DNA from: an uncultured Bacilli bacterium
GTDB taxonomy: Bacteria > Bacillota_I > Bacilli_A > RF39 > UBA660
Direction: 5' to 3'
Assembly (NCBI GenBank): GCA_944359075.1
Contig: CALVSR010000003.1
Span: forward strand, 1-44,037
DNA: 44,037 bases
The position numbers and the translations under genes are program-made. Below the pieces are notes generated by a model that saw only the letters and a program-made list of their open reading frames with translations, searched no databases and was not told where the DNA came from. Positions 1,003-20,798 of this stretch are shown piece by piece. Positions within the stretch are counted from its first letter, which is position 1. Each line of letters begins with the position of its first letter.

Positions 1003-1011
1003 TTCTTTTTT
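981..1011 (+). terminator. Rho-independent terminator
   Basis: AGAACTATCTT-gtga-AAGGTAGTTCT hairpin followed by a T run. Confidence 0.65.
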
Positions 1012-1166
1012 AGTTTTCCGTCACAAAATATACAATATGTTTACTATTATGGCAAATTAACGACAAAAAACGACAATCCAAAGCAAAAATGCCCCAAAAT
1101 CATTTTTATCGAATATTATATATCCAATATGTGATAAATAATCACATATTTTTTTGTAGGAGAAAT

Positions 1167-1922
1167 ATGATGGATCAATTAAAAATGGGGAAAATGATTG
1201 CTGAACTTAGAAAAAAACAAAATCTAACACAAGCACAATTAGGAGAAAAATTAAATGTAACAGATAAAACAATATCTAAATGGGAAAGAGGAAATAGAAC
1301 ACCAGATATTTCGATATTAAATGATTTAAGTAGGATTTTAAAAATTACCACGACTGAATTATTGGATAGTGAACAAATGGAAACACCCGCATTAAAAAGA
1401 TTGTTTCTGGATCATAGCAGTGAAACACAATATTTTAAAGATGTCAGTGAAGCACTATTATTATTTTTAAATAATCATTATGAAAACTGCTATGTTTATT
1501 TTATTCAAAGTCAAGATCATAATTATTATATCAATGGGTTAATTATCCATTCTAATGAAAAAGAGTTTATTAACATTCATTCGATTGAGAAACTTTCAAA
1601 TGATTCTATGAATTTAGAATCTGCATACACTTATGAATATTCCTTAAACATACAAAGTAATAGTATTTATAAACTGGGTAATATCTCGTTATATCAGCAT
1701 CATCATAATAAAGTTGCCATTCCTATCAGTGACATTTTAAGTGAAATTAAAATATACGTAGCAATAGACACAAAAGAAAATTATACTTTAGTAGAAAAAC
1801 CAAATCTTACCATAAAATATATCAATCAAGAATTCCAAGAAAAGGATATACAGATTCCTTTACTTACTCAGGAAATTTTTGCAAACCATAAAGTTACCTA
1901 TAAAGATACAACATATTTTTAG
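1167..1922 (+). CDS. XRE-family HTH transcriptional regulator with C-terminal domain of unknown function
   Basis: IAELRKKQNLTQAQLGEKLNVTDKTISKWERG is a classic XRE HTH. SD AGGAG at 1158-1162 favours ATG 1167/1170 over the ORF-track start at 1089. Confidence 0.85.
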   Translation: MMDQLKMGKMIAELRKKQNLTQAQLGEKLNVTDKTISKWERGNRTPDISILNDLSRILKITTTELLDSEQMETPALKRLFLDHSSETQYFKDVSEALLLFLNNHYENCYVYFIQSQDHNYYINGLIIHSNEKEFINIHSIEKLSNDSMNLESAYTYEYSLNIQSNSIYKLGNISLYQHHHNKVAIPISDILSEIKIYVAIDTKENYTLVEKPNLTIKYINQEFQEKDIQIPLLTQEIFANHKVTYKDTTYF

Positions 1923-1947
1923 AATGATTTCTTATCATTCTTTTTTT
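1921..1947 (+). terminator. Rho-independent terminator
   Basis: AGAATGAT-ttctt-ATCATTCT followed by a T run. Confidence 0.6.
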
Positions 1948-1957
1948 AATGACAGAA

Positions 1958-2047
1958 TTCGCCAAATTGGCGATAAGACTCGCCAAATTGAGTGTGTTAT
2001 TTAGAATTTAGTTTTGTTATTCTCAAGATGTAAGGATGATCCTTACA
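1958..2047 (+). promoter_or_regulatory. Putative regulatory region of the toxin operon
   Basis: TCGCCAAATTG direct repeat at 1959-1969 and 1980-1990 (21-bp period); palindrome TCGCCA-AAT-TGGCGA; extended -10-like TGtTATTCT at 2015-2023; palindrome TGTAAGGA-TGA-TCCTTACA at 2029-2047. Confidence 0.45.
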
Positions 2048-2179
2048 AAAAATAGGAAAGGGGAGGAATGAGGATGACATAGCGCTCAAAGTACAAGCAA
2101 AGGGTTCATAAGAATAGAGATTGAATCACTGCGATATTAAGAAGTATAAAATAAATATTTAGAAAGAAGGGAAAACAAT

Positions 2180-2827
2180 ATGAATAATTATGATTATATA
2201 ATTAATTCTTTTACAAAAGAAGAAAATGACATTGATTTAGAAGTAGATAATTTAAATGTGGGATGTATCACATCAAAAAATAATAATTTTAATTTAGATA
2301 GTGAAGGAAACTTAACTGTAAAAAGTGTTACAGCACAACAAGGAACATTATCACAGGAAATTATTAGAAATTTAGTTTATCCAGTAGGTTCTATTTATAT
2401 GAATATTAATGCTACCAATCCAGCAACATTATTTGGTGGAACTTGGGAGCAATTACCAGACAGATTTTTATTAGGAGCTGGAAATAGTTATGCAGGAGGA
2501 AGCATTGGAGGAGAGGCAACACATACATTGACGGAAGCAGAAATACCATGGCATTATCATTCATTCAGCGGGACTACAGATGGCAATGGTAATCATTCTC
2601 ATACTGGTAATACATTAGAACTACGTCAAACTAGTTCATATAGCTATAGCAACGATGCTGCAAGGCCAATTACAAGTAGTGCTACTCATTATGGATTACA
2701 AATCACAAATGATGCAGGATGGCATCAACATACATATAGTGGAAATACAGTAGGCGCAGGAGGAAGTCAAGCTCACAATAATATGCCACCATACTTAGCA
2801 GTTTACATTTGGAAACGCACGGCTTAA
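2180..2827 (+). CDS. Phage baseplate/tail-fibre-tip-like protein (T4 gp10/gp12 C-terminal-like)
   Basis: YPVGSIYM...NPATLFGGTWEQL...GGEATHTLT...HxH repeats (HYH, HSH, HQH)...HNNMPPYLAVYIWKRTA are hallmark motifs of phage baseplate/tail-fibre collar and tip proteins. Confidence 0.8.
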   Translation: MNNYDYIINSFTKEENDIDLEVDNLNVGCITSKNNNFNLDSEGNLTVKSVTAQQGTLSQEIIRNLVYPVGSIYMNINATNPATLFGGTWEQLPDRFLLGAGNSYAGGSIGGEATHTLTEAEIPWHYHSFSGTTDGNGNHSHTGNTLELRQTSSYSYSNDAARPITSSATHYGLQITNDAGWHQHTYSGNTVGAGGSQAHNNMPPYLAVYIWKRTA

Positions 2828-2864
2828 GCTTACTCATAAAAACATAAAAAAGGAGAGTGAAACA

Positions 2865-5800
2865 GTGAAGGAAATAGAATTAATTGAAAAAAGAAAAGCT
2901 AATGAAAAACATTTTCTTCAAGAAGATGGAACTATTACTGCAAAGGTATATAGTAGTAATATTCATTATTTAAAAAATGGTAAATATGAAGATATTGATA
3001 ATACTTTAATAAAAAAAGATGATTGTTATATTAATAAAAACAATGATTATAAAGTGTTTTTTAAAGAACAAGGTAAAGATTCCTTAATGAGAATGGAAAG
3101 AGAAAATAACTATTTAGATATTAAGTTAAAACAAGGAAATGCAACTAAGCTAAAGAAACATCAAAAAACATCTCAATATGTAGAAGAAGTCTCATATCAT
3201 AATGCATTAAATGGAATAGATATTAAATATCAAACACTACCAACTAAAGTTAAAGAAACGATAATTTTAAATAATAATCAAACCAAAACAATAAAATTTA
3301 TTGTTGATACTAATTTATCTTTGGAATTAAAGGATAATACTATTATTGCCAAGGACCAAGATGAAAATGTATTCACAATTGAAAAGCCTTATATGGAGGA
3401 TTCAAATGGTGTTATTAATGAGAATATATCATATCAAATCACTAACAGCGACAATTTATATGAAATAGAACTAACACTAGATTCAGAGTGGTTGGACTCT
3501 GAAGAAAGACTATATCCTGTTTATGTTGATCCAACTATATCCGATGATAAAACTGCTAGTGGTATTATGGATACTTATATTTATCCAAATGATACGAATA
3601 CAGTTAGATATAATCAACCCATATTAAAAGCTGGTGTAGAAAGAGTTAACGGTGAAAATGTAATCAATAGAGCTTTAATTAAATTTAATCTCCCAACAAT
3701 TGGAACAGGTAGTGAGGTTATTAACGCCACTTTAACATTGTGCGGTTATCTTATGGACGACATGACTGGAACACAACAGTTTGGAAAAACAATAGCCATT
3801 CATAGAGTTACTGTGCCATGGACAGAAGAGACTGCCAACTGGGAAAATATGAATAATAATTATGATACAAGAATAGATGCCGTACAATTTGTAAATAGAA
3901 GTTGGTTAGAAAATGGCCAAATTATACCTCAATATAGTAGCGCCCTTTATGGGGATGTAACCGATTTGGTTAAACATTGGTATAAAGATACCCCTAACTA
4001 TGGAATCCTTATTAAATCAGCCAAAGAAGAATATATTGATGATGCTTATCCTGCATTTTATTCAAAAAATCATACAATACAAAATGCAAATCCGGAACCT
4101 GTTCTAAGTATTTCATATAGGAACCAAAGCGGGTTAGAATCTTATTATGATTATCAATCCCAGCAATTGACAGATGGAACAATATCAGTAAATACATATA
4201 ATGGAAATTTAGTTGGGGTATTTAATTTAGGGAAAACCATAGGTAGTCAATTGCCTGCAATTTTAAATCTCATTTATAACACAAATGATGTAATATTAAA
4301 AAATAATGGTTTTAGATTTAGTTTGAGTCAAACTTTAAAAGAAATTACTATAGATAATACACAAATCTATGAGTACATTGATGGAGATGGCACTGTTCAT
4401 TGTTTCAAAGACCAAACATTCCGTGTTTTAAAACCAGGTGTAACTCCCCCAACAGTGGAAGAAATTCTGGATGAAAATTATAACGAAGATGATTATTATG
4501 AAACAAGGGAATATTGTGCTGATGAAGATGGTTTATTACTTAAATTAGAACAAGTAGATAACAAATTTATTATTAAAGATAAATATGATAATAAAATGAC
4601 TTTCTCTAAAAATAATACAACAGACGAATTATATTATTTACAAGAATTAGAAGACATTTCTAATAATAAAATTCAAATAAATTATAATCAAAGCAATCAA
4701 CTTGTAAAAGTAATTGATTCTAGCAATCATGAAATTAATATAGATTATAATACAGCTAATGTAATTAAGGTAAGTAGTCCATCTTCAGAAACTACGATTG
4801 GATTTAGTAACAATAAAATTAATGTTATTACTACGAATAATGGTACGACTTCTCTTAATTACAATGAAAAAGATATTATTTCATCTATTATAGATGTGAA
4901 CGGTACTAAAATAGCTTATGAATATTATGATGAGATTCCTTATCGTATCAAAAAAGTAATACAGTATGGATTGAATGATACACTAGGACAATCTTTAATT
5001 TTCAAATACGGATTTAATGAAACTAGTATTACAGATAACAAAAATAGAACCAATACAATATTATTTAATTCTAGTGGAAATAAAATATCAAGTAATACAA
5101 TGGATACGGAAGAGGATATTAACAACGCATATTCTACTTATGACTCTATTGGAGAAAACAATAGTGATCGCTATTATGAAAAAAATAAGACATTATATTC
5201 TAATTGTATAGTTAAATATGTAAAAAATTATCTAAAAAATACAAGTTTTGAAGCAGATACAAATGATTATAATATTTCTAACATTGGTGGGGTAGAAACT
5301 AGCTATTCAACTGACTGTGCAAATTCCGGAACTAGAAGTTTAAAAGTAGCTACAACTAATAATTATAGTACTGTAACATTAGCAAGTAATATGAATATCT
5401 TAACTGGTAAATATTATACATTCAGTGGTTATTTTAAAAATGAACAAAAAGGAAAAATTATAGTTAGTTATACAGATAAACAAGATGGAAAAGAATATGA
5501 ATTTGTTGAGGAATTTAATGAATCATCCCAATTTGAAAGGCATGATATTACTTTCTGCATTAATGCTGATGAACCTGAAGATGTTGTCCTTTATGTCCAA
5601 CTTTTAGGACCTGGGACTTGTTACATCGATGACATCCAATTAGAAGATGGTCAAGTAGCAAATAATTATAATATGGTAGAAAACTCTGATTTCTCAGAAG
5701 GACTAAGTGATTGGTCATTTACTCCAATTGATTCTTCTAAAACGGATACTTATCAGCTATTTACATTTAATAACAATAAAAGTACAGCATTGAAAATTGA

Positions 5801-8800
5801 TTTGAGTAATTCCACAAAAGTAAGTAAGAAAATACCGATTAATGGTATAGCTGGTGATTGCTATGATATATCGTTCTGGATTAAAAATGAGGGAATAGTA
5901 GCAAATAATGGAATTATAGTAAACTGTGTTAATATATCATATGAACCAGTGGATGAAAACATGGAACAATATTGGGTAGTTAGCAATCCATTTGTACCTA
6001 ATAAAAGATGGCAATTTATAAATTATAAAAGTATAGCTCCATATAATTATAAATCTATTACTATAAGTTTTGAACATAATAATGAATTTAATCAGATGTC
6101 TATTACTAATATATATTTCTATAAAGATTTAGACACTACATATTATGAATACGATACTTATGGTAATTTAGTTCGTACTACTAATATTGCAGATTACAAT
6201 AATACATTTTCATATGATAAAAATAACCAATTGATTTCCGCAACAACGCCTAGGGGAAAACATTTCAAATTTGAATATGATAATACAGCAACTGATCGTG
6301 TTCTTAATGCTATATCCTCTATGGGAATTTCTAATCAAGTTAAATATGATTCCTTTGGTAATCCTATTTTGACTAGAATTAGTAAGAAAGCAAATTCTAG
6401 TCCAACAAATCTTTATCCAGTGGTTGATTCCAATTCAACAACGAGTTCTAGTTTGACAGAAGGTACATATAGAATTAGAAGTAAAGGTACTGAAAAATAC
6501 TTTAAGGCTGAATATAGCAGTGTATTTTTGGAAAGTGATTCCTGTAGTAATACCTTATGGGATTTAGAAAAGGTTGGAGATAAATTTAAATTTATTTATT
6601 CTGTTATTCCTACATATTCATTAGAATATTTAGATGATATATTGTTTCTAAGTACTAGTAACAGCAATAATTTATTTATCTTAGAAGAAAATAAAAATGG
6701 TAGTTATCATATTAAATTAGCAACAGAAGATAAGTATATAAAGGCAGATACTTCTTCATTAGCAGCAGCTTCTCTAATAGATGATGATCCTACTTTTGAA
6801 TTTTATTTTGAAGTAATAGGAGAACAGTTTATAGAAAATAGTGCTACTTACAGTGAAGATGGTAGATTTGTTACTAGTGTTACAGATAGTCTATTAAATA
6901 CAACTTCCTATACAACTAACTCTACAACTGGATTAGTAACTTCTATGACAAATGCTAATAATCAAGCCACTAATTATACATATAATAGTAAAAATCAAAT
7001 TACATCCATTACTCAAGGGAATAAAACTATAAATTATACATATAATACACAAAATCTATTAAGTAAAATTTCCCAAGGAACCAAAGAATATAATTTTACT
7101 TATGATGACTTCTTGAATGCAAAGAAAGTAATGATTGGAGACAATATTACACTAATAACCAATGAGTATGAAGAAAACAATGGTAATCTATTAAAATCAA
7201 TCTATGGAAATAATCACGAAATCTCTTTTGATTATGATCAGTTTGACCGAGTTCAAACAATTCATAAAATGGATAAAGATTATCAATATTTATATGACAG
7301 TAATGGAAATTTAGCTGAAATTTTAACAAACAACATCATTTCTACTTTTGATGCTCCATCAACAGAATTAGAAAAATGGTATGATTCTATTATAAAATAT
7401 AATTATGATACTATTAAAAGAATAAAAGAATATGTTAATGATAATTTTAAAATCCATTATACATATGACAAAAATGATAATGTAACAAGTAAACAATATA
7501 AACTGGATACTACTACTCACAATTTAGTAAATACATATGACAAAGATGATAATTTAACAAAAACAGTAGTAGATAACCAAGAAGTAAATTATCAATACGA
7601 TGAATTGGGTAGATTAATCAGTAAAAATATCAATGATAATTATACTACAAATTATGATTATATTTCACTTGGAAAAAGAACATCAACTTTAGTAAATAGT
7701 ATTCAGAATGGAAATAATAGATATTCTTACCAATATGATAAATTAAATAATATTACTCATCTTTACTATAATGGTGAACTTCAAAAACAATACTATTATG
7801 ATGATTACAATGAACTAATAAAAGAAGAGGATTACAATACTAATCAAAAAATAGAGTATAATTATGACAATTTTGGTAATTTATTAACAAAAACTACCAC
7901 AGATATGACAACAAATGCTATAATAAAGACAGATACTTATCAGTATTCTAATAGTAATTGGGAAGACCAACTAACAAACTTTAATGGAAGTAGTATTACA
8001 TATGATGCCATTGGAAACCCATTAACGATTGGAAATAGTATCGAGATGACTTGGATCAATGGTAGAAGTTTAAGTACCTATGAAGATACTACCAAGAACT
8101 TGAATATCAGTTATGAGTACAATGTAGATGGTATTAGAACAGCAAAGATAGTAAATCAAGTAGAAACTAAGTATTACCTAGAAAATAGTAATATTATCTA
8201 TGAACAAAGAGGAAACAACTTAATCTATTATCTATATGATTTAACAGGGTTAATAGGGTTAAAATACAATGATAATACTTATTATTACATTAAGAATCTA
8301 CAAGGAGATATTATAGGAGTACTAGATTCTAATTACAATCAAGTAGTATCTTATGAATACGATAGTTGGGGTAAAGTATTAAGTATTAAAGATAATCAAG
8401 GTAATGAAATTACAGATACAACCAATATCGGTATCATCAATCCATTTAGATATAGAGAATACTATTATGATACAGAAACTAGCTTATATTACTTAAATAG
8501 TAGGTACTATAATCCTGAATGGGGTAGATTTTTGAATGCGGATGGTATTTTGGGTGCTAATATGGATATATTAGGGTATAATTTATATGCCTATGTTAAT
8601 AATAATCCAATTACCATGAGCGATTTAAGTGGTAATTTTGCAATTTCTGCTTCCTTCGCTATTGCAGGAATAGTTGCTACTGCGATCGTAGCAGCGGCGG
8701 CAGCAGCTGTACCATCGATAATGAGAGCTGCTGTTCAGGCAACTGCAGATATTATCCAGCAAGTACAAATTCATAATGCGGAAAAGAGTAAAAAGAATCA

Positions 8801-9149
8801 AAATAAACCAGAAAACAATAATCACAACGTATATGTTCTTAAAGATAAAACTACTGGAAATATAGAGTATGTTGGAAGAACTCAAGATATTGGTAAAACA
8901 ACAATTAGACATCATAATAATCCATTTAGAACTGATTTAAGAATAGACCCAATAGCAATAAACATTTCCAGTGATGAAGCTAGAGGATTGGAACAAATGC
9001 TGATTATAAATTGTAGAACACTTAATAGAAATTCAGACTTTCCAATGAACAATCAAATTAATGGAATCTCACTAAAAAATCCAAAATATGCATTATATTG
9101 GGATGCAGCATTAACTTGGGCTTCAGAAAATGAATTACCATGTAAGTAA
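2865..9149 (+). CDS. WapA-like Rhs/YD-repeat polymorphic toxin with GIY-YIG-like nuclease tip
   Basis: 2094 aa, SD AAGGAG and GTG start. DNRLRE-like domain (DTYI...NRALIKFNL), two CBM-like domains (NYLKNTSFE; NMVENSDFS), ricin-like insert, many YD repeats, and Rhs core (PFRYREYYYD...YYLNSRYYNPEWGRF...NLYAYVNNNP..DLSG). A hydrophobic helix precedes the tip VYVLKD...EYVGRT...R...EARGLEQ...NQIN. Confidence 0.92.
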   Translation: MKEIELIEKRKANEKHFLQEDGTITAKVYSSNIHYLKNGKYEDIDNTLIKKDDCYINKNNDYKVFFKEQGKDSLMRMERENNYLDIKLKQGNATKLKKHQKTSQYVEEVSYHNALNGIDIKYQTLPTKVKETIILNNNQTKTIKFIVDTNLSLELKDNTIIAKDQDENVFTIEKPYMEDSNGVINENISYQITNSDNLYEIELTLDSEWLDSEERLYPVYVDPTISDDKTASGIMDTYIYPNDTNTVRYNQPILKAGVERVNGENVINRALIKFNLPTIGTGSEVINATLTLCGYLMDDMTGTQQFGKTIAIHRVTVPWTEETANWENMNNNYDTRIDAVQFVNRSWLENGQIIPQYSSALYGDVTDLVKHWYKDTPNYGILIKSAKEEYIDDAYPAFYSKNHTIQNANPEPVLSISYRNQSGLESYYDYQSQQLTDGTISVNTYNGNLVGVFNLGKTIGSQLPAILNLIYNTNDVILKNNGFRFSLSQTLKEITIDNTQIYEYIDGDGTVHCFKDQTFRVLKPGVTPPTVEEILDENYNEDDYYETREYCADEDGLLLKLEQVDNKFIIKDKYDNKMTFSKNNTTDELYYLQELEDISNNKIQINYNQSNQLVKVIDSSNHEINIDYNTANVIKVSSPSSETTIGFSNNKINVITTNNGTTSLNYNEKDIISSIIDVNGTKIAYEYYDEIPYRIKKVIQYGLNDTLGQSLIFKYGFNETSITDNKNRTNTILFNSSGNKISSNTMDTEEDINNAYSTYDSIGENNSDRYYEKNKTLYSNCIVKYVKNYLKNTSFEADTNDYNISNIGGVETSYSTDCANSGTRSLKVATTNNYSTVTLASNMNILTGKYYTFSGYFKNEQKGKIIVSYTDKQDGKEYEFVEEFNESSQFERHDITFCINADEPEDVVLYVQLLGPGTCYIDDIQLEDGQVANNYNMVENSDFSEGLSDWSFTPIDSSKTDTYQLFTFNNNKSTALKIDLSNSTKVSKKIPINGIAGDCYDISFWIKNEGIVANNGIIVNCVNISYEPVDENMEQYWVVSNPFVPNKRWQFINYKSIAPYNYKSITISFEHNNEFNQMSITNIYFYKDLDTTYYEYDTYGNLVRTTNIADYNNTFSYDKNNQLISATTPRGKHFKFEYDNTATDRVLNAISSMGISNQVKYDSFGNPILTRISKKANSSPTNLYPVVDSNSTTSSSLTEGTYRIRSKGTEKYFKAEYSSVFLESDSCSNTLWDLEKVGDKFKFIYSVIPTYSLEYLDDILFLSTSNSNNLFILEENKNGSYHIKLATEDKYIKADTSSLAAASLIDDDPTFEFYFEVIGEQFIENSATYSEDGRFVTSVTDSLLNTTSYTTNSTTGLVTSMTNANNQATNYTYNSKNQITSITQGNKTINYTYNTQNLLSKISQGTKEYNFTYDDFLNAKKVMIGDNITLITNEYEENNGNLLKSIYGNNHEISFDYDQFDRVQTIHKMDKDYQYLYDSNGNLAEILTNNIISTFDAPSTELEKWYDSIIKYNYDTIKRIKEYVNDNFKIHYTYDKNDNVTSKQYKLDTTTHNLVNTYDKDDNLTKTVVDNQEVNYQYDELGRLISKNINDNYTTNYDYISLGKRTSTLVNSIQNGNNRYSYQYDKLNNITHLYYNGELQKQYYYDDYNELIKEEDYNTNQKIEYNYDNFGNLLTKTTTDMTTNAIIKTDTYQYSNSNWEDQLTNFNGSSITYDAIGNPLTIGNSIEMTWINGRSLSTYEDTTKNLNISYEYNVDGIRTAKIVNQVETKYYLENSNIIYEQRGNNLIYYLYDLTGLIGLKYNDNTYYYIKNLQGDIIGVLDSNYNQVVSYEYDSWGKVLSIKDNQGNEITDTTNIGIINPFRYREYYYDTETSLYYLNSRYYNPEWGRFLNADGILGANMDILGYNLYAYVNNNPITMSDLSGNFAISASFAIAGIVATAIVAAAAAAVPSIMRAAVQATADIIQQVQIHNAEKSKKNQNKPENNNHNVYVLKDKTTGNIEYVGRTQDIGKTTIRHHNNPFRTDLRIDPIAINISSDEARGLEQMLIINCRTLNRNSDFPMNNQINGISLKNPKYALYWDAALTWASENELPCK
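8128..8531 (+). repeat. Rhs core repeat copy 1 (404 bp, near-identical to 10141-10544)
   Basis: Manual alignment at offset 2013 shows 4 substitutions. Confidence 0.92.
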
Positions 9150-9161
9150 GGAGGAATGAAT

Positions 9162-10037: not shown

Positions 10038-10058
10038 GAGAAATATGAATAGTATGAG

Positions 10059-11194
10059 TTGAATTGGATCAATGGAAGAAGTTTATGTAGCTATAGTGAT
10101 TCTTCTAACGATTTAGATATCATTTATGAGTATGATGAAAATGGTATTAGAACAGCAAAGATAGTAAATCAAGTAGAAACTAAGTATTACCTAGAAAATA
10201 GTAATATTATCTATGAGCAAAGAGAAAACAACTTAATCTATTATCTATATGATTTAACAGGGTTAATAGGATTAAAATACAATGATAATACTTATTATTA
10301 CATTAAGAATCTACAAGGAGATATTATAGGAATACTAGATTCTAATTACAATCAAGTAGTATCTTATGAATACGATAGTTGGGGTAAAGTATTAAGTATT
10401 AAAGATAATCAAGGTAATGAAATTACAGATACAACCAATATCGGTATCATCAATCCATTTAGATATAGAGAATACTATTATGATACAGAAACTAGCTTAT
10501 ATTACTTAAATAGTAGGTACTATAATCCTGAATGGGGTAGATTTATTAATGCAGATAATTATATATCAACTGATACTGGATTACTGGGTTATAATATGTA
10601 TAATTACGCAAATAATAATCCTATAACTTTTGCGGATCCAATGGGTCATGCTGTTTTTATTGGATTATTAGTAGGAATTGTCGCAGCTGGAGCAGCGGGT
10701 ATAGCATATGGCATAAATAATAAGAAACAAAATCAAAAAGCTATCAAAGAAATTAATCAAGTTCAAAAAAAATATCCTAATTCTGTTCCAAATCCGTCTA
10801 AATCAGTTCAATTTCAGGAAACACTAAAAACTAATGCATCTATTGTGAAATCTGAAACTAAAAATATGAATCAGTTCCAAAAATTAGATTACTTTATTAA
10901 TAATGTTAAAACTGGTGGAAAATATGATTTGAAGAATACCGAGGAATGGAAAAACACTGATATATATTATGATGGGTGATTATGGAACCTCAAGATATTG
11001 GAAACTATCACTTTGGTTATATTGGCAGAGCAATGGGTTATGATACTGAATTCTTAACTTCTGGAGCTGGTGCTTATCAATTATATAGTGGAACAGCTAA
11101 AATATCTTGGTGTTTTACAACTAATAATTGTGATGATCCAAGAGATAATTATTATATTAGATTGGGCGCAATTGCATATGATAAAAATAATTAA
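10059..11194 (+). pseudogene. Orphan Rhs core plus C-terminal toxin (Ntox44-like RNase), split by a 1-bp frameshift
   Basis: ORFs 10059-10979 and 10976-11194 join if GATGGGTGATT (~10971-10981) had one more G. Motifs: DPMG cleavage site, TM helix, VKTGGKYDLK...DIGNYHFGYIG...GAG...DDPRD (Ntox44). No SD before 10059. Confidence 0.8.
10141..10544 (+). repeat. Rhs core repeat copy 2
   Basis: Near-identical to 8128-8531. Confidence 0.92.
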
Positions 11195-11233
11195 ATTAGT
11201 TTTGAGTAAAAATTATTTGGACGGTGATTGTAA

Positions 11234-11821
11234 GTGACAAAAAAAATGCTCTTTTTTGGATTATTTCTTTTCACACTATGTTTATTATGTAATTGGTATA
11301 GTGATTTAATTGTCGGATATTTCACGATATTTACTTTACTTTTTATTAAACTTTTTTTACTAATTATATGGATTATATTTCTAGTTAAAATAATTAAAAG
11401 TTTTGATAAAAATAAGAATAAAATTAATATTTTATTTGGAATTTTACTAATAGGTTCTATTTTTTCATTGTTTTTTGACTTTAGATTTATTAAAACTAAA
11501 GTTGAATTTACACTATATAAAAAACAGAGAAATATAATAATAGAAAAAGTTAAGAATAATGAATTTACTTATTATTTTGATAAAAATATAAAATTACCAA
11601 TATATAAATATGTTTCTTCTGATGGTGAGATTTATGTATATAGAAATGATGAAGAACAAATAATTGGCTTTTGGATATTTAGAGGAATTTCAAGTGGGAA
11701 TGTTGAGTTAATCTATTCTTCTGATGGGGAAGATTTAATATACGATATTAAGAATAATTCAGAAATCGTTAAGATTATTGAGTTAGAAGAAAATTGGTAT
11801 TATGTAGAAAGCAACTACTAA
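11234..11821 (+). CDS. Putative membrane immunity protein of the orphan cassette
   Basis: 195 aa with about 3 N-terminal TM helices; lies directly downstream of the orphan toxin tip. Confidence 0.65.
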   Translation: MTKKMLFFGLFLFTLCLLCNWYSDLIVGYFTIFTLLFIKLFLLIIWIIFLVKIIKSFDKNKNKINILFGILLIGSIFSLFFDFRFIKTKVEFTLYKKQRNIIIEKVKNNEFTYYFDKNIKLPIYKYVSSDGEIYVYRNDEEQIIGFWIFRGISSGNVELIYSSDGEDLIYDIKNNSEIVKIIELEENWYYVESNY

Positions 11822-11840
11822 TGAAAAAATAATATAATAT

Positions 11841-12035
11841 TTGGAAGTATGGAATGATAAAAATACAACAAAGGAATTTACCCTTTTCGGTCACAATTTA
11901 ATAAAAGACAATGAAAATTCAAGTTTAGTATCTGGAATTGAATCGTCAAAAAACTCTAAATTCATTGGAATAAGCTTTGAAGGATTTATTGGTTTTGGAG
12001 GAAGAATAAAAATTGGATTTAATATTGGAGGTTAA
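11841..12035 (+). pseudogene. Probable C-terminal remnant of another toxin tip
   Basis: No SD. Gly-rich end (GISFEGFIGFGGRIKIGFN) resembles Rhs C-termini, and its 3' end supplies the SD GGAGG for the next gene. Confidence 0.45.
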
Positions 12036-12043
12036 GATTTATT

Positions 12044-12421
12044 ATGGGTGTAAAAATCAGAAGATTAATAGCAATATATATAGATTGTAATATCATATTT
12101 TGGGTAAGTTATTATTTTTGTGTATTTTGGTCACTATTTAGTAAAAATATTTTCTTTCTTTTTTTCTTTCGTTAGTGGGATTATTAGTATTTATAAATGT
12201 ATTTTTAAGAAAAGATATAATATTTGGTTATGAAAGTATTGGTAAAAAATTAATGCGATTAAAAATTTACGATAAAAATAACGAAAGACTAACAAATAAG
12301 AAACAACTTATTGATCGAACCTTTCATTCCCTTTGGACTTTTCATATATATATTTTTATGATTTTAATAAATAAATAACAAAAGTACTGGAGATAAAAAA
12401 ATTGGTACAACAGTAAAATAA
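12044..12421 (+). pseudogene. RDD-family membrane protein with two frameshifts
   Basis: ATG 12044 gives MGVKIRRLIAIYID, then a shift in the T tract at ~12159-12165. It continues as ...DIIFGYESIGKKLMRLKI..., shifts again in the AAAT repeats at ~12370, and ends NNKSTGDKKIGTTVK*. RR..A..ID, SIGKK and GD...GT.V are RDD motifs. Confidence 0.7.
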
Positions 12422-12500
12422 AATTTATTAATATTAGATATTAAATTAAATATATAAATATAAAAAAATATGAATATGCCTATGTATGGGAGGATTTAAA

Positions 12501-13283
12501 ATGATTATAAATAAAAACATAGAGAATGATGCTTATCTAAAACTAGTTCATTATGCTTTTCAAAAATGTGATAGTATTTTTCTTATAAAAAGAAATGACC
12601 AGCATAAGTCAAGTACAAATAAAATCATGGGAATTATTATGCAAACTAATCAATATACAGAAAATGATATTGTAAATATGTATACAGTAAATTCTAAAAA
12701 GTTTTTAGAGGAGATGGTTGGTCAGTTTATAGATAATGATACTATTTTTGAAGAAGATGAATGGAAAGAGAACTTGGTAAAATTAGGAGCAGATAGTAAA
12801 CAAATTGAAAAGTGTAAAATCGATAATAGCTTTCATATGATAGAGGATAGCATTATGCAATTTGTATACGAGCACCTAACTTACTCATGGATTAGTAAAC
12901 ATCGAAATAGTATTATTTCTGAAAAAAATAGATATTTACCATTAAAGTATATATCTAATAAAGCTATGTATGATGAGCAGTTTCTTTATACCACTACATA
13001 TTATATTAGATTAACTAATGAAATAAAAGCAGAACTAATTAATAAAAATTCGATTTATGATTGGTGTTTTCCAATGGCTCTTGAAGATTTATGTTTTTTT
13101 AAAGACGGTTATTGTTGGTTATATTCTGTCGCACATGAAGAAATTTTAGATATTTATTGTGAAAATGAAGAAGAATATAATTACTTGAAATCAATCGGAG
13201 TCGAATTTGTAGAAGATCATTTTATACCTATTTCAGAGAAAGAGAAGGAAGCTTTATACAATAAAAACTTTAATAATAATTAA
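12501..13283 (+). CDS. Putative immunity protein, paralog A (EDLCFFKDGYCWLYSVAHE family)
   Basis: SD GGAGG then ATG 12501; the N-terminus aligns with the 16328 and 17296 paralogs; located in the toxin array. Confidence 0.7.
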   Translation: MIINKNIENDAYLKLVHYAFQKCDSIFLIKRNDQHKSSTNKIMGIIMQTNQYTENDIVNMYTVNSKKFLEEMVGQFIDNDTIFEEDEWKENLVKLGADSKQIEKCKIDNSFHMIEDSIMQFVYEHLTYSWISKHRNSIISEKNRYLPLKYISNKAMYDEQFLYTTTYYIRLTNEIKAELINKNSIYDWCFPMALEDLCFFKDGYCWLYSVAHEEILDIYCENEEEYNYLKSIGVEFVEDHFIPISEKEKEALYNKNFNNN

Positions 13284-13474
13284 TCGTACATTTATTATGA
13301 ATACAATGTAGATAGTATTAGAATAGCAAAGATAGTAAATGGATTAAAAACCAAGTATTACCTAGAAAATAGTAATATTATCTTTGAGCAAAGAGGAAAC
13401 AACTTAATCTATTATCTATATGATTTAACAGGATTAATAGGATTAAAATACAACGATGATACTTATTATCACAT
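13083..13474 (+). repeat. ~390-bp direct repeat, left copy (3' end of immunity gene plus Rhs core fragment)
   Basis: Matches 16880-17271 (offset 3797) with the first ~215 bp identical; 13295-13474 also matches Rhs 8111-8290. Confidence 0.9.
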
Positions 13475-13536
13475 AGAATTTATTAAACTATTTTACTAGT
13501 TATGATTGAATACACTAATTATAAAAAGGTGAAAAA

Positions 13537-13992
13537 ATAATAGGCGTTAGATTCAAAATAGAAAATGAATATGATAATATTTTTTATAAAATATTTAAAA
13601 ACATAGATTTTCATGAATACGATTGAAACATTGTTGAGGATGAGATTTATTCTCAGACAGGAAAAAATTATTTTGACAAAGCTCATTATTTAAATGATGA
13701 GTTTCAGAAGTTAATAGAATATGGAATATATTACCCAGTGTTTGCTAATATACAAATGTATAGAAAACAAGATGAAGTAGAAGATATTGAAACTTATTCA
13801 GATTTTATTAATAGTAAATGTCAGCTTGTCTTATTTATTACAGATAATGAATTTGTTGATATTTATTCTAAGAATGAAAATTGGTTAAATACTATTTACC
13901 AAAATGCTATAGATAATAACTTTGAAAACCTTCAATATATTGAAAATAATAATTCTTATATACATCATAGATTTTCTGCATACTCAGACTAA
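13537..13992 (+). pseudogene. DUF2691-like putative immunity protein with nonsense codon and lost start
   Basis: In frame upstream of ORF 13738: IGVRFKIENEY...FHEYD*(TGA 13624)NIVEDE...YYPVFANIQMY...IETYSDFINSKCQLVLFITD. SD AAGGTGA is followed by ATA rather than ATG. Confidence 0.65.
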
Positions 13993-14065
13993 GTAAAATT
14001 GATATCAATAAATTATGACATAGATCATTTAGGTGGGCAAAATATATTTTAATTAAATTAATAAT

Positions 14066-14100
14066 AAAAGGCTCTATCTATATATAGGATTGAGTCTTTT
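14066..14100 (+). terminator. Putative terminator upstream of the holin
   Basis: AAAAGGCTC...GAGTCTTTT hairpin. Confidence 0.45.
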
Positions 14101-14126
14101 GCCTATTAGTGAAAGGAGAAATGAAC

Positions 14127-14486
14127 ATGGAAGAGTTTATAGAACATATTATGGCAATGAATGAGCCAAAATTATTATTTATATTATGTGGAATATTTAT
14201 ATTTACAGATGTTCTAACAGGATATTTAAAGGCATTTAAAACAAAAAAAATTAATTCATCTATTAGTAGAGATGGTTATTTAAAGAAAGTATCTTGGCTA
14301 ATAGCATTAATTTTTGGATTTGTAATTGATTATTTAGTAGGTACACAATTATTTTTAATTGGAACAGCAGTAGTATGTGTGATAACAGAGGGAATATCCG
14401 TTTATGAAAATCTTGGCGAATTAGGAGTTAGCTTACCATTTACAAAGTACTTTGAAAAAGTAAAAGATAATAGTGAGATTATATAG
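14127..14486 (+). CDS. Phage holin family 4 (TcdE/Cp-1-type) holin
   Basis: DVLTG..KA....INSSISRDG..KK and EGISVYENLG.LG motifs, 3 TM helices; SD AAGGAG 8 nt before ATG 14127. Confidence 0.88.
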   Translation: MEEFIEHIMAMNEPKLLFILCGIFIFTDVLTGYLKAFKTKKINSSISRDGYLKKVSWLIALIFGFVIDYLVGTQLFLIGTAVVCVITEGISVYENLGELGVSLPFTKYFEKVKDNSEII

Positions 14487-14501
14487 AAGGGAATATAGAG
14501 T

Positions 14502-15374
14502 GTGAATTATTTTACATTTGGGATGAAAGTGTTAAGAGTAACGCAAAACTATAATGGATCTACTTCGCATAAAGCACACTGGTATCACTCTACTAACTAT
14601 GCAGATTATCCAATTGACTGTGCTGGAAAAGATGGTGACAAAGATATTTACTATGCACCAGTAGATATGAAAGTAACGGCTGTAAAAGGAATAGGTAATG
14701 CTACTACTAATACTATTTGGTTAGTAGCATGTGAAAAATGTATGACCCCAAGCGGAGAAATATTACCTTTTATTATGCTAACTCATTTTAATGATAATGA
14801 TCCCTATGTATCTAATTTGAAAGTAGGTTCTATTGTGAAACAGGGACAACCTATTTGTGAAGAAGGAACAGATGGTGCTACTGCGAATCATTTACACATC
14901 GTAGTAGGAAATGCAGATAGAGGTTGTGGAAATGGTTTCATTCAAAACTCTAATGGTAAGTGGGTTAGTAATGGTTACTGTATGAAACCAGAAGAAATTA
15001 TGTATATAGATAAAGACTTCACAAATGTACTTGATACCAATGGTATTATTTTTAAAGATAAGCCCAAAGAAGAACCAAAAGAAAGTTTTTTTGGATCAAA
15101 AGGGTACTTTTGTTTAGGAAATTATCATGAAAATATTGGAAAAATTTGCGATTTCTTTGCTGAATATTTTTATGGATACTTTTATAAAGGAGAAAATGCT
15201 AAAGCAAAGGCTCATCAAGTCTTAGACGGAAATTATTTTGGACCTTATTTAAAAAAATGGACAATAGAGTTTCAAAAACGTGCTAAAGATGAAGGAAAAT
15301 ACAATGATGAAATAGATGGATGCATTGGCCCTAAAACCCTAACTGCCTTAAAATATTATGGATTTCAAGAATAG
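14502..15374 (+). CDS. Endolysin-like peptidoglycan hydrolase: M23-type peptidase plus C-terminal PG-binding domain
   Basis: H...PID..G.DG, YAP, KVG..VKQGQ.I..EG.DG...NHLH (M23 Zn motif); C-terminal DG.YFGP......EFQK...DGCIGPKT (PG_binding_1-like); no signal peptide. Confidence 0.85.
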   Translation: MNYFTFGMKVLRVTQNYNGSTSHKAHWYHSTNYADYPIDCAGKDGDKDIYYAPVDMKVTAVKGIGNATTNTIWLVACEKCMTPSGEILPFIMLTHFNDNDPYVSNLKVGSIVKQGQPICEEGTDGATANHLHIVVGNADRGCGNGFIQNSNGKWVSNGYCMKPEEIMYIDKDFTNVLDTNGIIFKDKPKEEPKESFFGSKGYFCLGNYHENIGKICDFFAEYFYGYFYKGENAKAKAHQVLDGNYFGPYLKKWTIEFQKRAKDEGKYNDEIDGCIGPKTLTALKYYGFQE

Positions 15375-15384
15375 TAAGATAATA

Positions 15385-15416
15385 AAGAGGAAATTTCAAT
15401 ATAAATTCCTCTTTTA
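15385..15416 (+). terminator. Rho-independent terminator after the endolysin
   Basis: AAAGAGGAA...TTCCTCTTTT hairpin. Confidence 0.6.
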
Positions 15417-15436
15417 TAATGTTAATATATATTTTA

Positions 15437-15809
15437 AGTAAAAAATATTAATGATAATAAACTATAATACAATTAAGATATTTCTGGTAATTTATTAACA
15501 AAAACTACCACAGATATGACAACCAATGTTATAATAAAGACAGATACTTATCAGTATTCTAATAGTAATTATGAAGACCAACTAACAAACTTTAATGAAA
15601 GTAGTATTACCTATGACAGCATCGGAAACCCATTAACAATTGGAAATAGTATCGAAATAGCCTGAATCAATGGTAGAAGCTTAAGTATCTATGAAGATGC
15701 TACCAAGAATTTAAATAATCATAGGAATACTAGATTCTAGTTACAATCAAGTAATATCTTATGAATACGATAGCTGGAGCCAAGTATTAAGTATTAAAGA
15801 TAATCAAGG
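15437..15809 (+). pseudogene. Internally deleted, degenerate Rhs fragment
   Basis: 15485-~15717 matches 7874-~8106; 15721-15809 matches 8313-8401; 15437-15484 loosely matches ~7620-7667; TGG>TGA at 15663. Confidence 0.85.
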
Positions 15810-15818
15810 AGGTTTATT

Positions 15819-16223
15819 ATGTATAGTATTGATGATATTATGGATATGCTTGATTGGAATAGGAGCATAGAAGATCAAGAAAAAGGTATAGAATTAGCAA
15901 GATCTATTAAAAGTATTAATGTTTTTATACAACCACTTGATCCAAACCACAATAAAAATGTATGGGAAAATTGTGCAAAGATTTTATTTGAGAGAAGTGA
16001 TGAAGAATTAAAACCATATTTAATTTCATTGTTTGAGTGGTTACAAGATTTAACTTGTCCTGGCGCTATGATTATTTTTGATAGATTAAAAAGTTATAAA
16101 GATAAGACAAATTTCGATTTTTCTTATAAAGTATGCTTAAGTGAAGCAAAAAAGTTAGGCGATGAGGCATGGAAAGATAATATAATCGAACTTGGCAAAT
16201 CTATAAATAAGGAGATATCGTAG
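15819..16223 (+). CDS. DUF5071-like putative immunity protein
   Basis: WENCAKIL...LKPYL..LFEWLQDL..PGA motif; SD AAGGAGG. Confidence 0.7.
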   Translation: MYSIDDIMDMLDWNRSIEDQEKGIELARSIKSINVFIQPLDPNHNKNVWENCAKILFERSDEELKPYLISLFEWLQDLTCPGAMIIFDRLKSYKDKTNFDFSYKVCLSEAKKLGDEAWKDNIIELGKSINKEIS

Positions 16224-16309
16224 GAATATTAGATTCTAGTTACAATCCACATTATCACCCAGGGAAAAGACCTAATCATTCACATATTTGGTTTTTTCCA
16301 TCCCCATAA
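16209..16309 (+). pseudogene. Rhs core fragment fused in frame to the last 20 codons of a deleted toxin tip
   Basis: 16209-16247 matches 8302-8340; the frame reads GDIVGILDSSYN-PHYHPGKRPNHSHIWFFPSP*. Confidence 0.6.
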
Positions 16310-16327
16310 GGAAAGGAAGATTAGAAA

Positions 16328-17080
16328 ATGGTTATAGATAAAAATATAGAGAAAGATACATATTGGAAATTAGTCGATTATGCTTTTCAAAAGTGTGATA
16401 CTATTTCTCTTACTAAGCAAAATGATCAACATGAATCAGAACATAAAAAAATTATGGATATTATTATGTCAATGAATAGTTATTCAGCAACCGATATTTT
16501 AAATAATTATTCTGAAAAATTTCTAGAAGATATGGTTCTTCAATTTAAAGATAATGATATTATTTTTGATGAGGAAAATTGGAAAAAGTATGTTAAAAGC
16601 TTGGGAATGAGTGATGAAAGTATTGAAGAATTAAAAAAAAGTAATAGATATCATACGATAACTGGAAGTATTATGAGGTTTGTTTATAAAAAACTTACAG
16701 AATCATGGATCAATAGAAATAGAAATAGTATTATTACAGTCACTAATCATTATATAACTGAATTATCTGGCAAAAAATTTTTATATAATCATATATATTA
16801 CATAAAAATGACAAAGGAAATACAGGAAGAAATGCTAAAAAAGCAATCATTATTTGATTGGATTTTTCCTACATCACTAGAAGATTTATGTTTTTTTAAA
16901 GACGGTTATTGTTGGTTATATTCTGTCGCACATGAAGAAATTTTAGATATTTATTGTGAAAATGAAGAAGAATATAATTACTTGAAATCAATCGGAGTCG
17001 AATTTGTAGAAGATCATTTTATACCTATTTCAGAGAAAGAGAAGGAAGCTTTATACAATAAAAACTTTAATAATAATTAA
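16328..17080 (+). CDS. Putative immunity protein, paralog B
   Basis: Homologous throughout to 12501-13283, with the C-terminal ~67 aa identical. Confidence 0.72.
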   Translation: MVIDKNIEKDTYWKLVDYAFQKCDTISLTKQNDQHESEHKKIMDIIMSMNSYSATDILNNYSEKFLEDMVLQFKDNDIIFDEENWKKYVKSLGMSDESIEELKKSNRYHTITGSIMRFVYKKLTESWINRNRNSIITVTNHYITELSGKKFLYNHIYYIKMTKEIQEEMLKKQSLFDWIFPTSLEDLCFFKDGYCWLYSVAHEEILDIYCENEEEYNYLKSIGVEFVEDHFIPISEKEKEALYNKNFNNN

Positions 17081-17296
17081 TCGTACATTTATTATTAATA
17101 CAATGTAGATGGTATTAGAATAGCAAAGATAGTAAATCAAGTAGAAACTAAGTATTACCTAGAAAATAGTAATATTATCTATGAGCAAAGAGGAAACGAC
17201 TTAATCTATTATCTATATGATTTAACAGGATTAATAGGGTTAAAATACAATGATAATACTTATTATTACATTAAGAATCTACAAGGAGATATTATA
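16880..17296 (+). repeat. ~390-bp direct repeat, right copy, extended by Rhs core fragment
   Basis: 16880-17271 matches 13083-13474; 17092-17296 matches Rhs 8111-8315. Confidence 0.9.
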
Positions 17297-17862
17297 TGTT
17301 AATTAAAGGAAAAATAGAAAATGAAAAATATGAAAGACTAATAAAATATGCTTTTCAAAAATCTGATGCAATTATGTTTGTCTTTAGAAAAGATGGCTTT
17401 AGTAATCAGCAAATTTTGAAATTAGAGAAAACATCTAATGACTTAAAAACAAAATTTAAAGATTATATTTTAAAAATTAGAAATGGTTCTTATTGGGTAT
17501 TTACAAAAGTTGGATATTCACAATTAGGTATTTCTAGTTCTGAATTTAAAGATCCATCTAATTTTGATAAATTATTTGAAGTGTTATTTTATAAAACTAC
17601 TAAAGAATTAGAAGAATATGTACTATCAAATTCTAATTTATATTCATGGCTTAATCCAGACTATCCTGAAGATATATCATTTTTTAAAAACGGCTATTGT
17701 TGGCTATATTCTGTAGCGCATGAAGAAATGTGTGACATATATTGTGAAAATGAGGAAGAATACAACTATTTAAAATCTATAGGAATTGAGTTTATGGATG
17801 ATAAGTTTATAGAAATTTTAAATAATGAATTATATTTTGAAAATTATGATAATATACTATAG
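17296..17862 (+). CDS. Putative immunity protein, paralog C
   Basis: YAFQKSD and EDISFFKNGYCWLYSVAHEE..DIYCENEEEYNYLKSIG motifs are shared with paralogs A and B. Confidence 0.72.
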   Translation: MLIKGKIENEKYERLIKYAFQKSDAIMFVFRKDGFSNQQILKLEKTSNDLKTKFKDYILKIRNGSYWVFTKVGYSQLGISSSEFKDPSNFDKLFEVLFYKTTKELEEYVLSNSNLYSWLNPDYPEDISFFKNGYCWLYSVAHEEMCDIYCENEEEYNYLKSIGIEFMDDKFIEILNNELYFENYDNIL

Positions 17863-17920: not shown

Positions 17921-17950
17921 AAAATCCACTAGCTAAACTAGTGGGTTCTT
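17921..17950. terminator. Bidirectional terminator marking the end of the island
   Basis: CCACTAG-ctaaa-CTAGTGG hairpin between convergent genes. Confidence 0.55.
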
Positions 17951-19928: not shown

Positions 19929-19997
19929 AATAAATGTCAACTTTACTACTTGTATTTTTAAGTGAATGTGATAGAATGATATTAGGAGGTCATAGAT

Positions 19998-20768: not shown

Positions 20769-20798
20769 CAACTACCCCTAATGATGATACTTGAATCA

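Follow-up and report, generated by a model that had tools for sequence, protein, structure and literature searches.

A leaderless Rhs toxin encoded with a phage-type fibre and a holin/endolysin cassette on an inserted island of an uncultured Bacilli bacterium

The DNA analysed here, called the window throughout, is the whole of contig CALVSR010000003.1 (44,037 nt; assembly GCA_944359075.1; positions 1 to 44,037 of the + strand) from an uncultured Bacilli bacterium (GTDB lineage Bacteria; Bacillota_I; Bacilli_A; RF39; UBA660). It corresponds to contig C3 of a metagenome-assembled genome (MAG) of 1.34 Mb that is 92% complete and has a G+C content of ~27%. Between ~1010 and 18140 the window holds one inserted island of ~17 kb, whose genes (1089 to 17862) all lie on the + strand and encode a regulator, a phage tail-fibre-like protein, a very large Rhs polymorphic toxin that lacks a signal peptide, a TcdE-family holin and a predicted endolysin. 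Our favored reading, to which we give a probability of roughly 0.6, is that the Rhs protein is a fibre-paired bacteriocin whose release would require the holin as well as the endolysin. The recurrence of the same gene set in many related genomes suggests that the cell is burst or its wall opened to let the toxin out. An earlier interpretation of the letters of this DNA (hereafter the sequence-only reading) had proposed this gene set, and the regulator, fibre, Rhs, holin and hydrolase genes are indeed all present and co-oriented. Its island start, at 1167, falls inside the regulator, which belongs to the island, but whose open reading frame (ORF) begins upstream, at 1089. It was also right to place the holin and hydrolase in the island, but the pair sits inside an array of orphan Rhs C-terminal (Rhs-CT) modules and putative immunity genes.

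The Rhs protein (2865..9149, + strand; 2094 aa, ~240 kDa) was delimited with Pfam, TIGRFAM and a structural model. It has the repeats and the core of polymorphic toxins (PF05593, E = 7.4e-21; TIGR03696, E = 8.5e-18 at residues 1832-1923) and consists of an N-terminal beta-sandwich (residues 1-229), a DNRLRE region (236-416), the RHS shell, the Rhs_assc_core (1832-1923), an Ala/Gly helix and a C-terminal toxin. The first 229 residues are modelled as all-beta with a predicted local distance difference test (pLDDT) value of 91. The Foldseek matches of this domain are weak and correspond to beta-sandwiches of polysaccharide lyases and glycosidases (best E = 1.6e-3, template modelling (TM) score 0.45); no phage baseplate-like fold is found among them. 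The C-terminal toxin domain gives a weak hint of GIY-YIG (E = 0.023). The absence of a Sec signal, already claimed by the sequence-only reading, is borne out: the first 80 residues contain no hydrophobic stretch (best 12-residue mean hydropathy 0.24), and the frame cannot be extended upstream because a stop codon precedes it and the ORF uses the first start codon that follows, 37 nt beyond the fibre gene. The window Rhs thus lacks the N-terminal signal peptide of Sec substrates. Signal peptides and transmembrane segments were called throughout with a hydropathy rule, a heuristic used in place of SignalP. A hydrophobic, Ala/Gly-rich helix at window:8660-8760 (Rhs ~1932-1965) lies between the core and the toxin domain and may help the toxin to cross the target membrane; the hydropathy rule flags at least one such internal hydrophobic segment in most Rhs homologues.

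The gene upstream of the Rhs (2180..2827, + strand) encodes a leaderless phage tail-collar/fibre-like protein of 215 aa. It matches PF21939 (Gp10_C; E = 1.8e-21, 78 bits against a cut-off of 27) and 11 tail families of PHROGs, among them the tail protein phrog_5717 (E = 1.5e-28) and phrog_6465; a phmmer search of the PDB sequences gave 0 matches at E up to 1. In the fibre alignment (A2) the N-terminal ~50 aa and the collar scaffold are conserved and the middle is hypervariable, and this middle is the one feature that hints at a receptor-binding role. A co-oriented fibre homologue is found at most 1.3 kb upstream of the Rhs in 37 of the 40 order-level loci described below. The three exceptions are L035, in which the fibre is downstream, L041, in which none was seen, and L039, in which the Rhs has a signal peptide and there is no fibre. 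In 13 loci a protein of 110-158 aa without known family separates the fibre from the Rhs. A complex prediction for three copies of the fibre and Rhs residues 1-232, based on own alignments, scored 0.00 against a mark of 0.32; it had no controls and is no evidence either way.

The holin gene (14109..14486, + strand) encodes 125 aa with 2-3 predicted transmembrane helices and belongs to the TcdE family, also called Phage_holin_4_1 (PF05105, E = 1e-19, 71.2 bits against 22.2; phrog_199). It also exceeds the cut-off of TIGR01593, 'toxin secretion/phage lysis holin' (64.9 bits against 40.2, E = 6.7e-18), in agreement with the TcdE-type assignment made earlier. The next gene (14502..15374, + strand) encodes a predicted endolysin of 290 aa without signal peptide (phrog_9066 endolysin, E = 3.6e-11). 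The sequence-only reading had called it an M23 endolysin. Its Pfam M23 score (17.9 bits) stays below the cut-off of 28.7, but the confident model of its N-terminal domain has a LytM/M23 fold, although the C-terminal ~100 aa are poorly modelled. Foldseek retrieved the wall-degrading enzyme gp13 of phi29 (3csq, E = 2.8e-11), LytM (2b13, E = 4.8e-4) and lysostaphin; phmmer found 0 matches to PDB sequences at E up to 1. Residues S22, H23, D39, D98, H130 and H132 are invariant in 11 homologues, and H23, D39, H130 and H132, assigned by eye, would form the HxxxD and HxH metal-binding motifs.

These genes are maintained. A contig from a conspecific MAG (L063; 97.5% nt identity) carries a second copy of the island, and the ratios of non-synonymous to synonymous substitution rates (dN/dS) between both are 0.18 for the regulator, 0.22 for the fibre, 0.13 for the Rhs and 0.13 for the lysin; the holin shows 1 synonymous and 0 non-synonymous differences. 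In L063 the holin and the lysin (98% nt identity) are the last genes before the SpoIIM flank, and another island of the same genus (genome G210) encodes a holin and a lysin with 78% and 72% aa identity, respectively, to those of the window. It had been anticipated that the closest relatives of the pair might lie in intact prophages; they lie in these two Rhs islands, and related cassettes also occur in prophages (L044, L045). Contigs from four DNA runs contain pieces that are 95-99% alike over the holin-lysin stretch, with different joints in the array; they were given no weight because contigs cannot show absence.

The distribution of the module was studied in 401 sampled genomes of the order, from 145 genera, with the Rhs N-terminus as query; a related-locus search with a single protein led to 5 loci. 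The Rhs N-terminus was found in 46 genomes from 33 genera. Forty of the loci were fetched from -4 kb to +16 kb, many of them cut by contig ends, and the resulting counts are descriptive, not tests. Lysis genes could be judged in 34 genomes, the other 12 being cut by contig ends or having loci that were not fetched, and they are present in the island or in its Rhs-CT/immunity array in 27 of these 34. In 24 cases they comprise a holin-like gene and a wall hydrolase, in 2 a holin only and in 1 an NlpC/P60 + PG_binding_1 protein with small membrane ORFs; no lysis genes were found in 7 well-covered loci. The usual absence of the pair from homologous Rhs loci would have spoken against the sequence-only reading, which had called for a search for conserved co-occurrence; on the contrary, both the fibre (37/40 loci) and the lysis genes (27/34 judgeable genomes) recur. 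The cassettes belong to at least five non-homologous types: a PF05105 holin with a lysin of the window type or of a type called 'M23b'; a 79-aa holin-like protein with M23b; Phage_holin_5_2 with Peptidase_M15_3; NlpC/P60 with PG_binding_1; and classic M23. They are mostly located at the distal end of the array, and upstream of the fibre in five loci; in 6 loci a protein of ~100-137 aa without known family precedes the holin. When all 401 genomes were scanned with PF05105, 64 were positive: 20 of the 46 with the Rhs and 44 of the 355 others. In 17 of the 20 genomes with both genes the holin belongs to the Rhs island or array, either on the Rhs contig within 20 kb (11) or on another contig together with Rhs-CT/immunity genes (6, weakly so in G197), and it is elsewhere in 3. 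A 40-kb neighbourhood chosen at random makes up ~3% of such a genome.

The lack of a signal peptide is as widespread as the module. It was noted in 36 of 37 Rhs ORFs from the window and the 40 order-level loci, and a database search with the first 460 Rhs residues matched 447 proteins, of which all 120 among the matches listed are leaderless, with the common start MKEIELIxKRKxREKHFL... and a length of ~2050 aa. The only order-level Rhs with a Sec-like signal (MKKFF...VFA) is L039, from genome G286. It follows NusB-XseA-SpoIVB, that is, it occupies the same chromosomal site as the window island, and its locus has neither fibre nor lysis genes. WapA of B. subtilis and some other Gram-positive Rhs toxins are Sec-exported. 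In a class-level survey, the Rhs N-terminal region has homologues in 57 of 400 genomes; 40 loci were fetched, 38 of them with a large Rhs. These proteins, which belong to other families, share the N-terminal beta-sandwich and the DNRLRE region, and in 34 of the 38 a hydrophobic segment comes after a charged n-region (2 others are borderline and 2 unclear). Hidden Markov models of the island fibre, holins, lysins, sigma factor, c3 and c11 gave 0 matches at E of 1e-3 or better in the 40 class-level loci, and a Pfam scan of 120 co-oriented neighbours (170-460 aa, at most 1 transmembrane segment, from -3.5 to +9 kb) detected no wall hydrolase. Taken with L039, these loci therefore indicate that the loss of the signal accompanies the gain of the fibre and lysis genes. 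The sequence-only reading had asked whether the two are correlated, and they are: L039 and the 38 class-level loci lack fibre, holin and lysin. It had also allowed for an overlooked signal peptide or another export route; the 36/37 and 120/120 listed leaderless proteins and the lack of enrichment of WXG100 genes described below argue against both. As a separate observation, in two genomes of another family (L094:14728-17859 and L095:14933-18106) a signal-peptide Rhs homologue forms part of a prophage, whose portal, prohead protease and capsid genes lie a few kb downstream of it.

Further evidence comes from the regulatory regions. The regulator of the window (1089..1922, + strand; 277 aa) is a helix-turn-helix protein of the XRE family (PF01381, HTH_3; E = 1.9e-15) whose C-terminal 177 aa (residues 101-277) have no Pfam match. 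At its position the relatives have two XRE genes (L003) or a sigma-70 r4 factor of ~160 aa, which is located upstream of the fibre in 10 loci and can only be placed as sigma-70/ECF-like. The islands with a sigma factor contain an 18-nt promoter-like motif, GTCTAGTGAAAGTCCAGT, followed ~13 nt later by a TATGAT-like hexamer. Allowing up to 2 mismatches, this motif occurs 10 times in the 1.79 Mb of fetched loci, and each of the 10 is found at most ~105 nt upstream of where a fibre gene (5 copies: L008, L009, L011, L014, L015) or a holin gene (5 copies: L008, L011, L043, L049, L051) starts, L008 and L011 having it before both. Between the two copies of L011 the element itself is unchanged, although its flanks have diverged. 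The fibre and holin genes of the sigma-type islands are thus probably co-regulated through this shared, promoter-like motif. The corresponding candidate in the window is the 9-mer ATGACATAG, a possible shared regulatory element that stands on the + strand at 2074..2082, 106 nt before the fibre start, and again at 14015..14023, 94 nt before the holin start. These are its only two copies in the 44 kb, with 0.44 expected, and it is kept upstream of the fibre gene in L003 and L063. In four relatives the leader between the sigma factor and the fibre contains the Rfam 'pemK RNA' (RF02913; 38-48 bits against a gathering score of 34.8), at L013:3168-3246, L017:17266-17323, L018:17362-17439 and L024:16813-16868; the window has no match to it at the gathering score.

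The island is a single insertion and not a prophage. In three Rhs-less genomes of the same genus, a small membrane-protein gene (window end 1002) is followed within ~250 nt by SpoIIM (window 18151), and because of this empty site the 17-kb stretch, with toxin and lysis genes together, can be seen as one insertion. Its edges are marked by terminator-like hairpins on the + strand, identified by a hairpin search at 981..1006 (upstream) and 17923..17947 (downstream, also delimited by the empty-site comparison); no tRNA and no direct repeat of at least 10 nt were found there. L063 bridges the end of the window contig, and its first 7.2 kb correspond to contig C36 of the window's own genome, with MutS, NusB, XseA/B, SpoIVB and two other ordinary genes. 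The sequence-only reading had stated that capsid, terminase, portal, tape-measure, sheath and integrase genes are absent, and the scans agree: these families had 0 matches among the 22 window ORFs searched with Pfam (242-21723) and the 14 island and upstream ORFs searched with PHROGs. No phage structural family was present in the upstream flank recovered through L063 and C36 either, so that the scanned ORFs and this flank lack the capsid, terminase, portal, tape measure, sheath or tube and integrase that define a prophage or a tailocin. A decayed prophage at this site was considered and rejected on the evidence of the empty site and the flanks. In the order-level loci the flanking genes are ordinary and differ between genera, and no phage structural genes occur in the flanks of the 38 loci outside genus g110. 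The island was probably acquired horizontally and assembled from the end of a phage late region, an Rhs toxin and an immunity/orphan array.

Several observations weigh against the favored reading. Holin/lysin pairs 72-75% identical to those of islands close the late region of same-family prophages (L045, with head, adaptor and tape measure; also L044). In genus g110 (G383, G254) phage tail genes, a holin and a lysin immediately precede the fibre-Rhs module, the order being major tail, a 663-aa ORF (574 aa in G254), phrog_1194, a 649-aa tail protein, two small ORFs, M23b lysin, fibre and Rhs. Because of these prophage pairs and the g110 layout, part of the linkage could be phage-ancestral and not selected. 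The cassette is not obligatory in cis, since six well-covered leaderless loci (G043, G081, G322, G085, G015 and G367) have no nearby lysis genes; the counts overstate the number of independent events, related genomes being non-independent; the signal calls are the product of a hydropathy rule, not of SignalP; the only shared upstream element in the window is the 9-mer, which is weak evidence there because 4 of 100 shuffles also give two or more copies; and a type VII secretion system (T7SS) locus exists elsewhere in the genome. The prophage pairs, the g110 layout and the window lysin, which is no more than 31-36% identical to any entry of the phage collection, make the islands look like the domesticated end of phage late operons, and their cassettes look as though they had been replaced repeatedly from local phages. 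One could go further and consider the fibre, holin and lysin as hitch-hiking remnants of a prophage that carried the Rhs as a moron, the toxin being released by ordinary autolysis or by another route. The junction with tail genes in G383 and G254, the close prophage relatives of the island cassettes and the six leaderless loci without cassette would fit such an origin. Nevertheless, simple remnants would hardly account for at least five unrelated cassette types on either side of the Rhs, a promoter motif common to the fibre and holin genes, low dN/dS values, the location of the holin within the island in 17 of the 20 genomes with both Rhs and holin, or the lack of structural genes around the 38 loci outside g110, and we consider this explanation quite unlikely.

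Under the favored reading, induction would come about by relief of the XRE repressor here and, in many relatives, by the action of a dedicated sigma factor. The fibre and the ~240-kDa Rhs, both leaderless, would be made and folded in the cytoplasm, the holin would open the membrane and the signal-less, LytM-type endolysin would cut the wall. Rhs and fibre would then be freed, most likely through the lysis of a sacrificed fraction of the cells, and kin would be protected by their immunity genes. Once outside, a target cell, presumably a bacterium, would be bound by the glycan-binding N-terminal Rhs domains and probably also by the fibre, and the Rhs shell would deliver the C-terminal toxin into it. 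A more specific version, which we put forward tentatively, is a tail-less, fibre-guided Rhs bacteriocin, for which the late-operon end of a phage would have been domesticated around an Rhs whose Sec signal had been lost; the fibre N-terminus would dock on the Rhs, the hypervariable tip would set the target range and programmed lysis would serve as export.

Release need not kill the producer. The holin could pass the endolysin, the wall could be opened locally, and the holin or the lesion could let the folded Rhs and fibre leave living cells, as proposed for large clostridial toxins. Membership of the holin in the TcdE family (PF05105/TIGR01593) would fit this scenario, as would the absence of any TatC match in this genome, which is 92% complete; passages of a review argue for non-lytic holin transport in clostridia without Tat (PMC9527704). 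Yet an Rhs shell of ~240 kDa far exceeds any cargo shown to pass non-lytically, a complete endolysin has been kept under purifying selection, and the Tc toxins, whose cargo is also an Rhs shell, are freed by lysis of a subpopulation (PMC10847048). Non-lytic passage is unlikely.

A different role for the same genes would be as add-ons to a particle whose genes lie elsewhere, for instance a resident phage or a tailocin, with the fibre N-terminus docking on its baseplate and the cassette freeing the particle. The conservation of the first ~50 aa of the fibre is what is seen in phage fibres, and contig C11 of the same genome has a prophage-like block with fibre-like and lysin homologues. This hypothesis is very unlikely all the same, as the island occurs in 33 genera with different resident phages, and fibre and Rhs adjoin each other and not tail genes, except in g110. 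Concerning C11, the block is long and co-oriented, its fibre-like and lysin homologues stand beside very large ORFs, and it looks like a prophage. Two more homologues of the lysin are present in this genome, at C11:7696-11206 (38% aa identity) and C47:8366-9698 (47%), both after small membrane-protein genes; the former closes the prophage-like block of C11.

Dedicated exporters have also to be weighed. The sequence-only reading reported no T7SS genes, which is true of the island, but the genome has a T7SSb-type locus on contig C16, with three tandem WXG100 genes (9941-10868) and an EssC-like ORF of 1544 aa with two FtsK domains (19423-21048). Export of the Rhs by this system, or by another dedicated exporter such as an ABC transporter with a C39 peptidase, is highly improbable. 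The Rhs N-terminus is all-beta, not helical as in LXG/WXG substrates, and the window lacks T7SS genes; WXG100 is no commoner in Rhs-positive genomes (12/46) than in the others (101/355) and was not found in G210, whose island is the closest one outside the species. As for ABC transporters, a C39-type bacteriocin exporter is located directly upstream of the fibre in 4 loci (L007, L016, L025 and L036), 3 of them without lysis genes, and that of L025 has a C39 peptidase domain (TIGR01193, bacteriocin_ABC; E = 3.5e-120). This placement would speak for such a route, but the Rhs N-terminus has no double-glycine leader, and C39-type exporters are known for small peptides. At class level, a pair of BLAST-related ABC genes precedes the signal-peptide Rhs of L077, L081 and L092.

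Some parts of this arrangement have known counterparts. Tailocins (R and F pyocins, diffocins) are phage-derived, fibre-targeted and released by their own holin and endolysin against related bacteria; in contrast, the island has no sheath, tube, baseplate or tape measure, and its killing part is an Rhs enzyme-delivery shell instead of a tail. WapA-type toxins have the same overall Rhs build, but the class-level homologues (34/38) carry an N-terminal signal or anchor and have no nearby fibre or lysis genes. A parallel to the cargo is the Tc toxin of Yersinia entomophaga, for which release by a type 10 secretion system (T10SS), based on holin, endolysin and spanin lysis of a specialised subpopulation, is established (PMC10847048). 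As described there, it too is a very large toxin without export signal, with an Rhs-type shell (TcB/TcC), freed by a co-encoded phage-derived cassette. The window likewise encodes a holin and an endolysin with a leaderless cargo. However, the Tc system is Gram-negative, uses a spanin, produces an insecticidal A-B-C complex and has no immunity genes or fibre, whereas the island belongs to a monoderm host and combines an antibacterial-type Rhs with an immunity/orphan array and a fibre. General Pfam and PHROGs scans, with no dedicated search, turned up no spanin family, and none is expected in a monoderm.

Among Gram-positive systems, release of TcdA and TcdB of C. difficile through TcdE has been reported (PMC3369941). 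PaLoc-type loci (TcdR, TcdE, endolysin remnant; also those of TcsL and TpeL) share with the island the holin family PF05105/TIGR01593 and a large leaderless toxin (PMC3369941 and PMC8878733), and many island relatives resemble them in having a dedicated sigma factor, itself placed only as sigma-70/ECF-like. They differ in their cargo, a glucosylating toxin against animal cells, and in having no fibre and no immunity array; moreover, the C. difficile endolysin is described as fragmentary in a passage of PMC9527704. The same passages describe the Bcn5 loci of Clostridium perfringens and C. algidicarnis, in which the gene of a leaderless protein bacteriocin is invariably accompanied by those of a sigma factor (UviA), a holin (UviB) and an amidase endolysin, release of the bacteriocin being inferred from this strict linkage (PMC9527704). 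The island works like this locus type without being a member of it. The Bcn5 holin is of the BhlA family, the lysin an amidase and the bacteriocin murein-hydrolase-like, and Rhs, fibre and orphan array are missing from the loci as described there (PMC9527704), whereas the window encodes a regulator of the XRE family, a PF05105 holin and a LytM lysin, with no amidase match, and its relatives have a generic sigma-70 r4 factor. The words Rhs, polymorphic and tail fibre have 0 occurrences in that review. Full-text searches, which covered main texts outside subscription journals, turned up no account of a Gram-positive Rhs with a linked lysis cassette or a fibre partner. The fibre pairing is the part for which no precedent was found, whereas the principle of holin/endolysin-dependent release has precedents in Tc/T10SS, TcdE and Bcn5/UviAB.

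The way in which large, folded toxins without a signal get out of Gram-positive cells has been settled for only a few clostridial toxins. The Rhs family offers a natural comparison, between forms with a signal peptide and no helpers and leaderless forms with fibre and lysis cassette, and the role of holin and endolysin in release is directly testable because the signal-peptide form occurs in one genome at the site of the window's island. If the fibre retargets the toxin, the module would be a compact, modular scaffold for killing chosen bacteria and a route for the tail-less reuse of phage receptor-binding proteins. The fibre-guided reading, if true, would imply a new class of protein bacteriocin and a new mode of polymorphic-toxin delivery in monoderms, exchanged as a unit among gut Bacilli. 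The island probably shapes competition in animal gut communities, as it is common in small-genome uncultured gut Bacilli (46/401).

The rest of the island, all of it on the + strand, is the array downstream of the Rhs. The sequence-only reading had spoken of immunity genes, and ORFs do occupy the expected position; we infer their role from that position only. The first (9156..10037; 293 aa) has no family match and is, by position, the putative cognate immunity protein; its homologues (cluster 'imm1') follow the Rhs in 7 loci. Next comes an orphan Rhs C-terminal module with Ntox44 (10059..11194; E = 4.1e-12), 83% identical to Rhs residues 1728-1924; this orphan is split over two overlapping frames, 10059-10979 (306 aa) and 10976-11194 (72 aa), and is a single frame in L021. 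The putative immunity or accessory genes at 11234..13283 include a protein with three transmembrane segments (11234-11821), small ORFs and a member of the p250 family (12486-13283), which is represented by three paralogues in the window and recurs in 7 loci. At 13290..13992 an Rhs core fragment (13290-13487) and a truncated DUF2691 gene (13738-13992) are what is left of a displaced module; the DUF2691 gene of L063 is complete and comes after the Tox-WTIP end of the Rhs there, which replaces the toxin end of the window from position ~8611 on. Beyond the lysin lies a strain-specific distal array (15459..17862) with Rhs fragments (15459-15813 and 17105-17296), DUF5071 (15819-16223) and p250-family genes (16328-17080 and 17296-17862). 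Rhs core fragments thus occur downstream of the Rhs at 10059-10649, 13290-13487, 15459-15813 and 17105-17296. The distal array is absent from L063, where the lysin directly precedes the SpoIIM flank, so that the two strains differ in toxin end and array, the latter being shorter in L063.

This organization bears on one last alternative, an intracellular suicide module in which Rhs and lysis cassette would act together in abortive infection against phages. Toxin and lysis genes that are leaderless and co-regulated could serve such a purpose. But the island bears the marks of a toxin directed at other cells: adjacent immunity genes, orphan toxin cassettes, a toxin end that changes between strains, and a receptor-binding fibre. 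This leaves the alternative with a nearly negligible probability. Finally, L005 and L046 (genome G282, contig C5, 39.5-49.3 kb) contain 3 holin copies with identical profile scores and 2 lysin copies, each after Rhs core fragments, which gives the impression that successive recombination at the Rhs core has pushed entire 3' ends (toxin end, immunity, holin and lysin) downstream.

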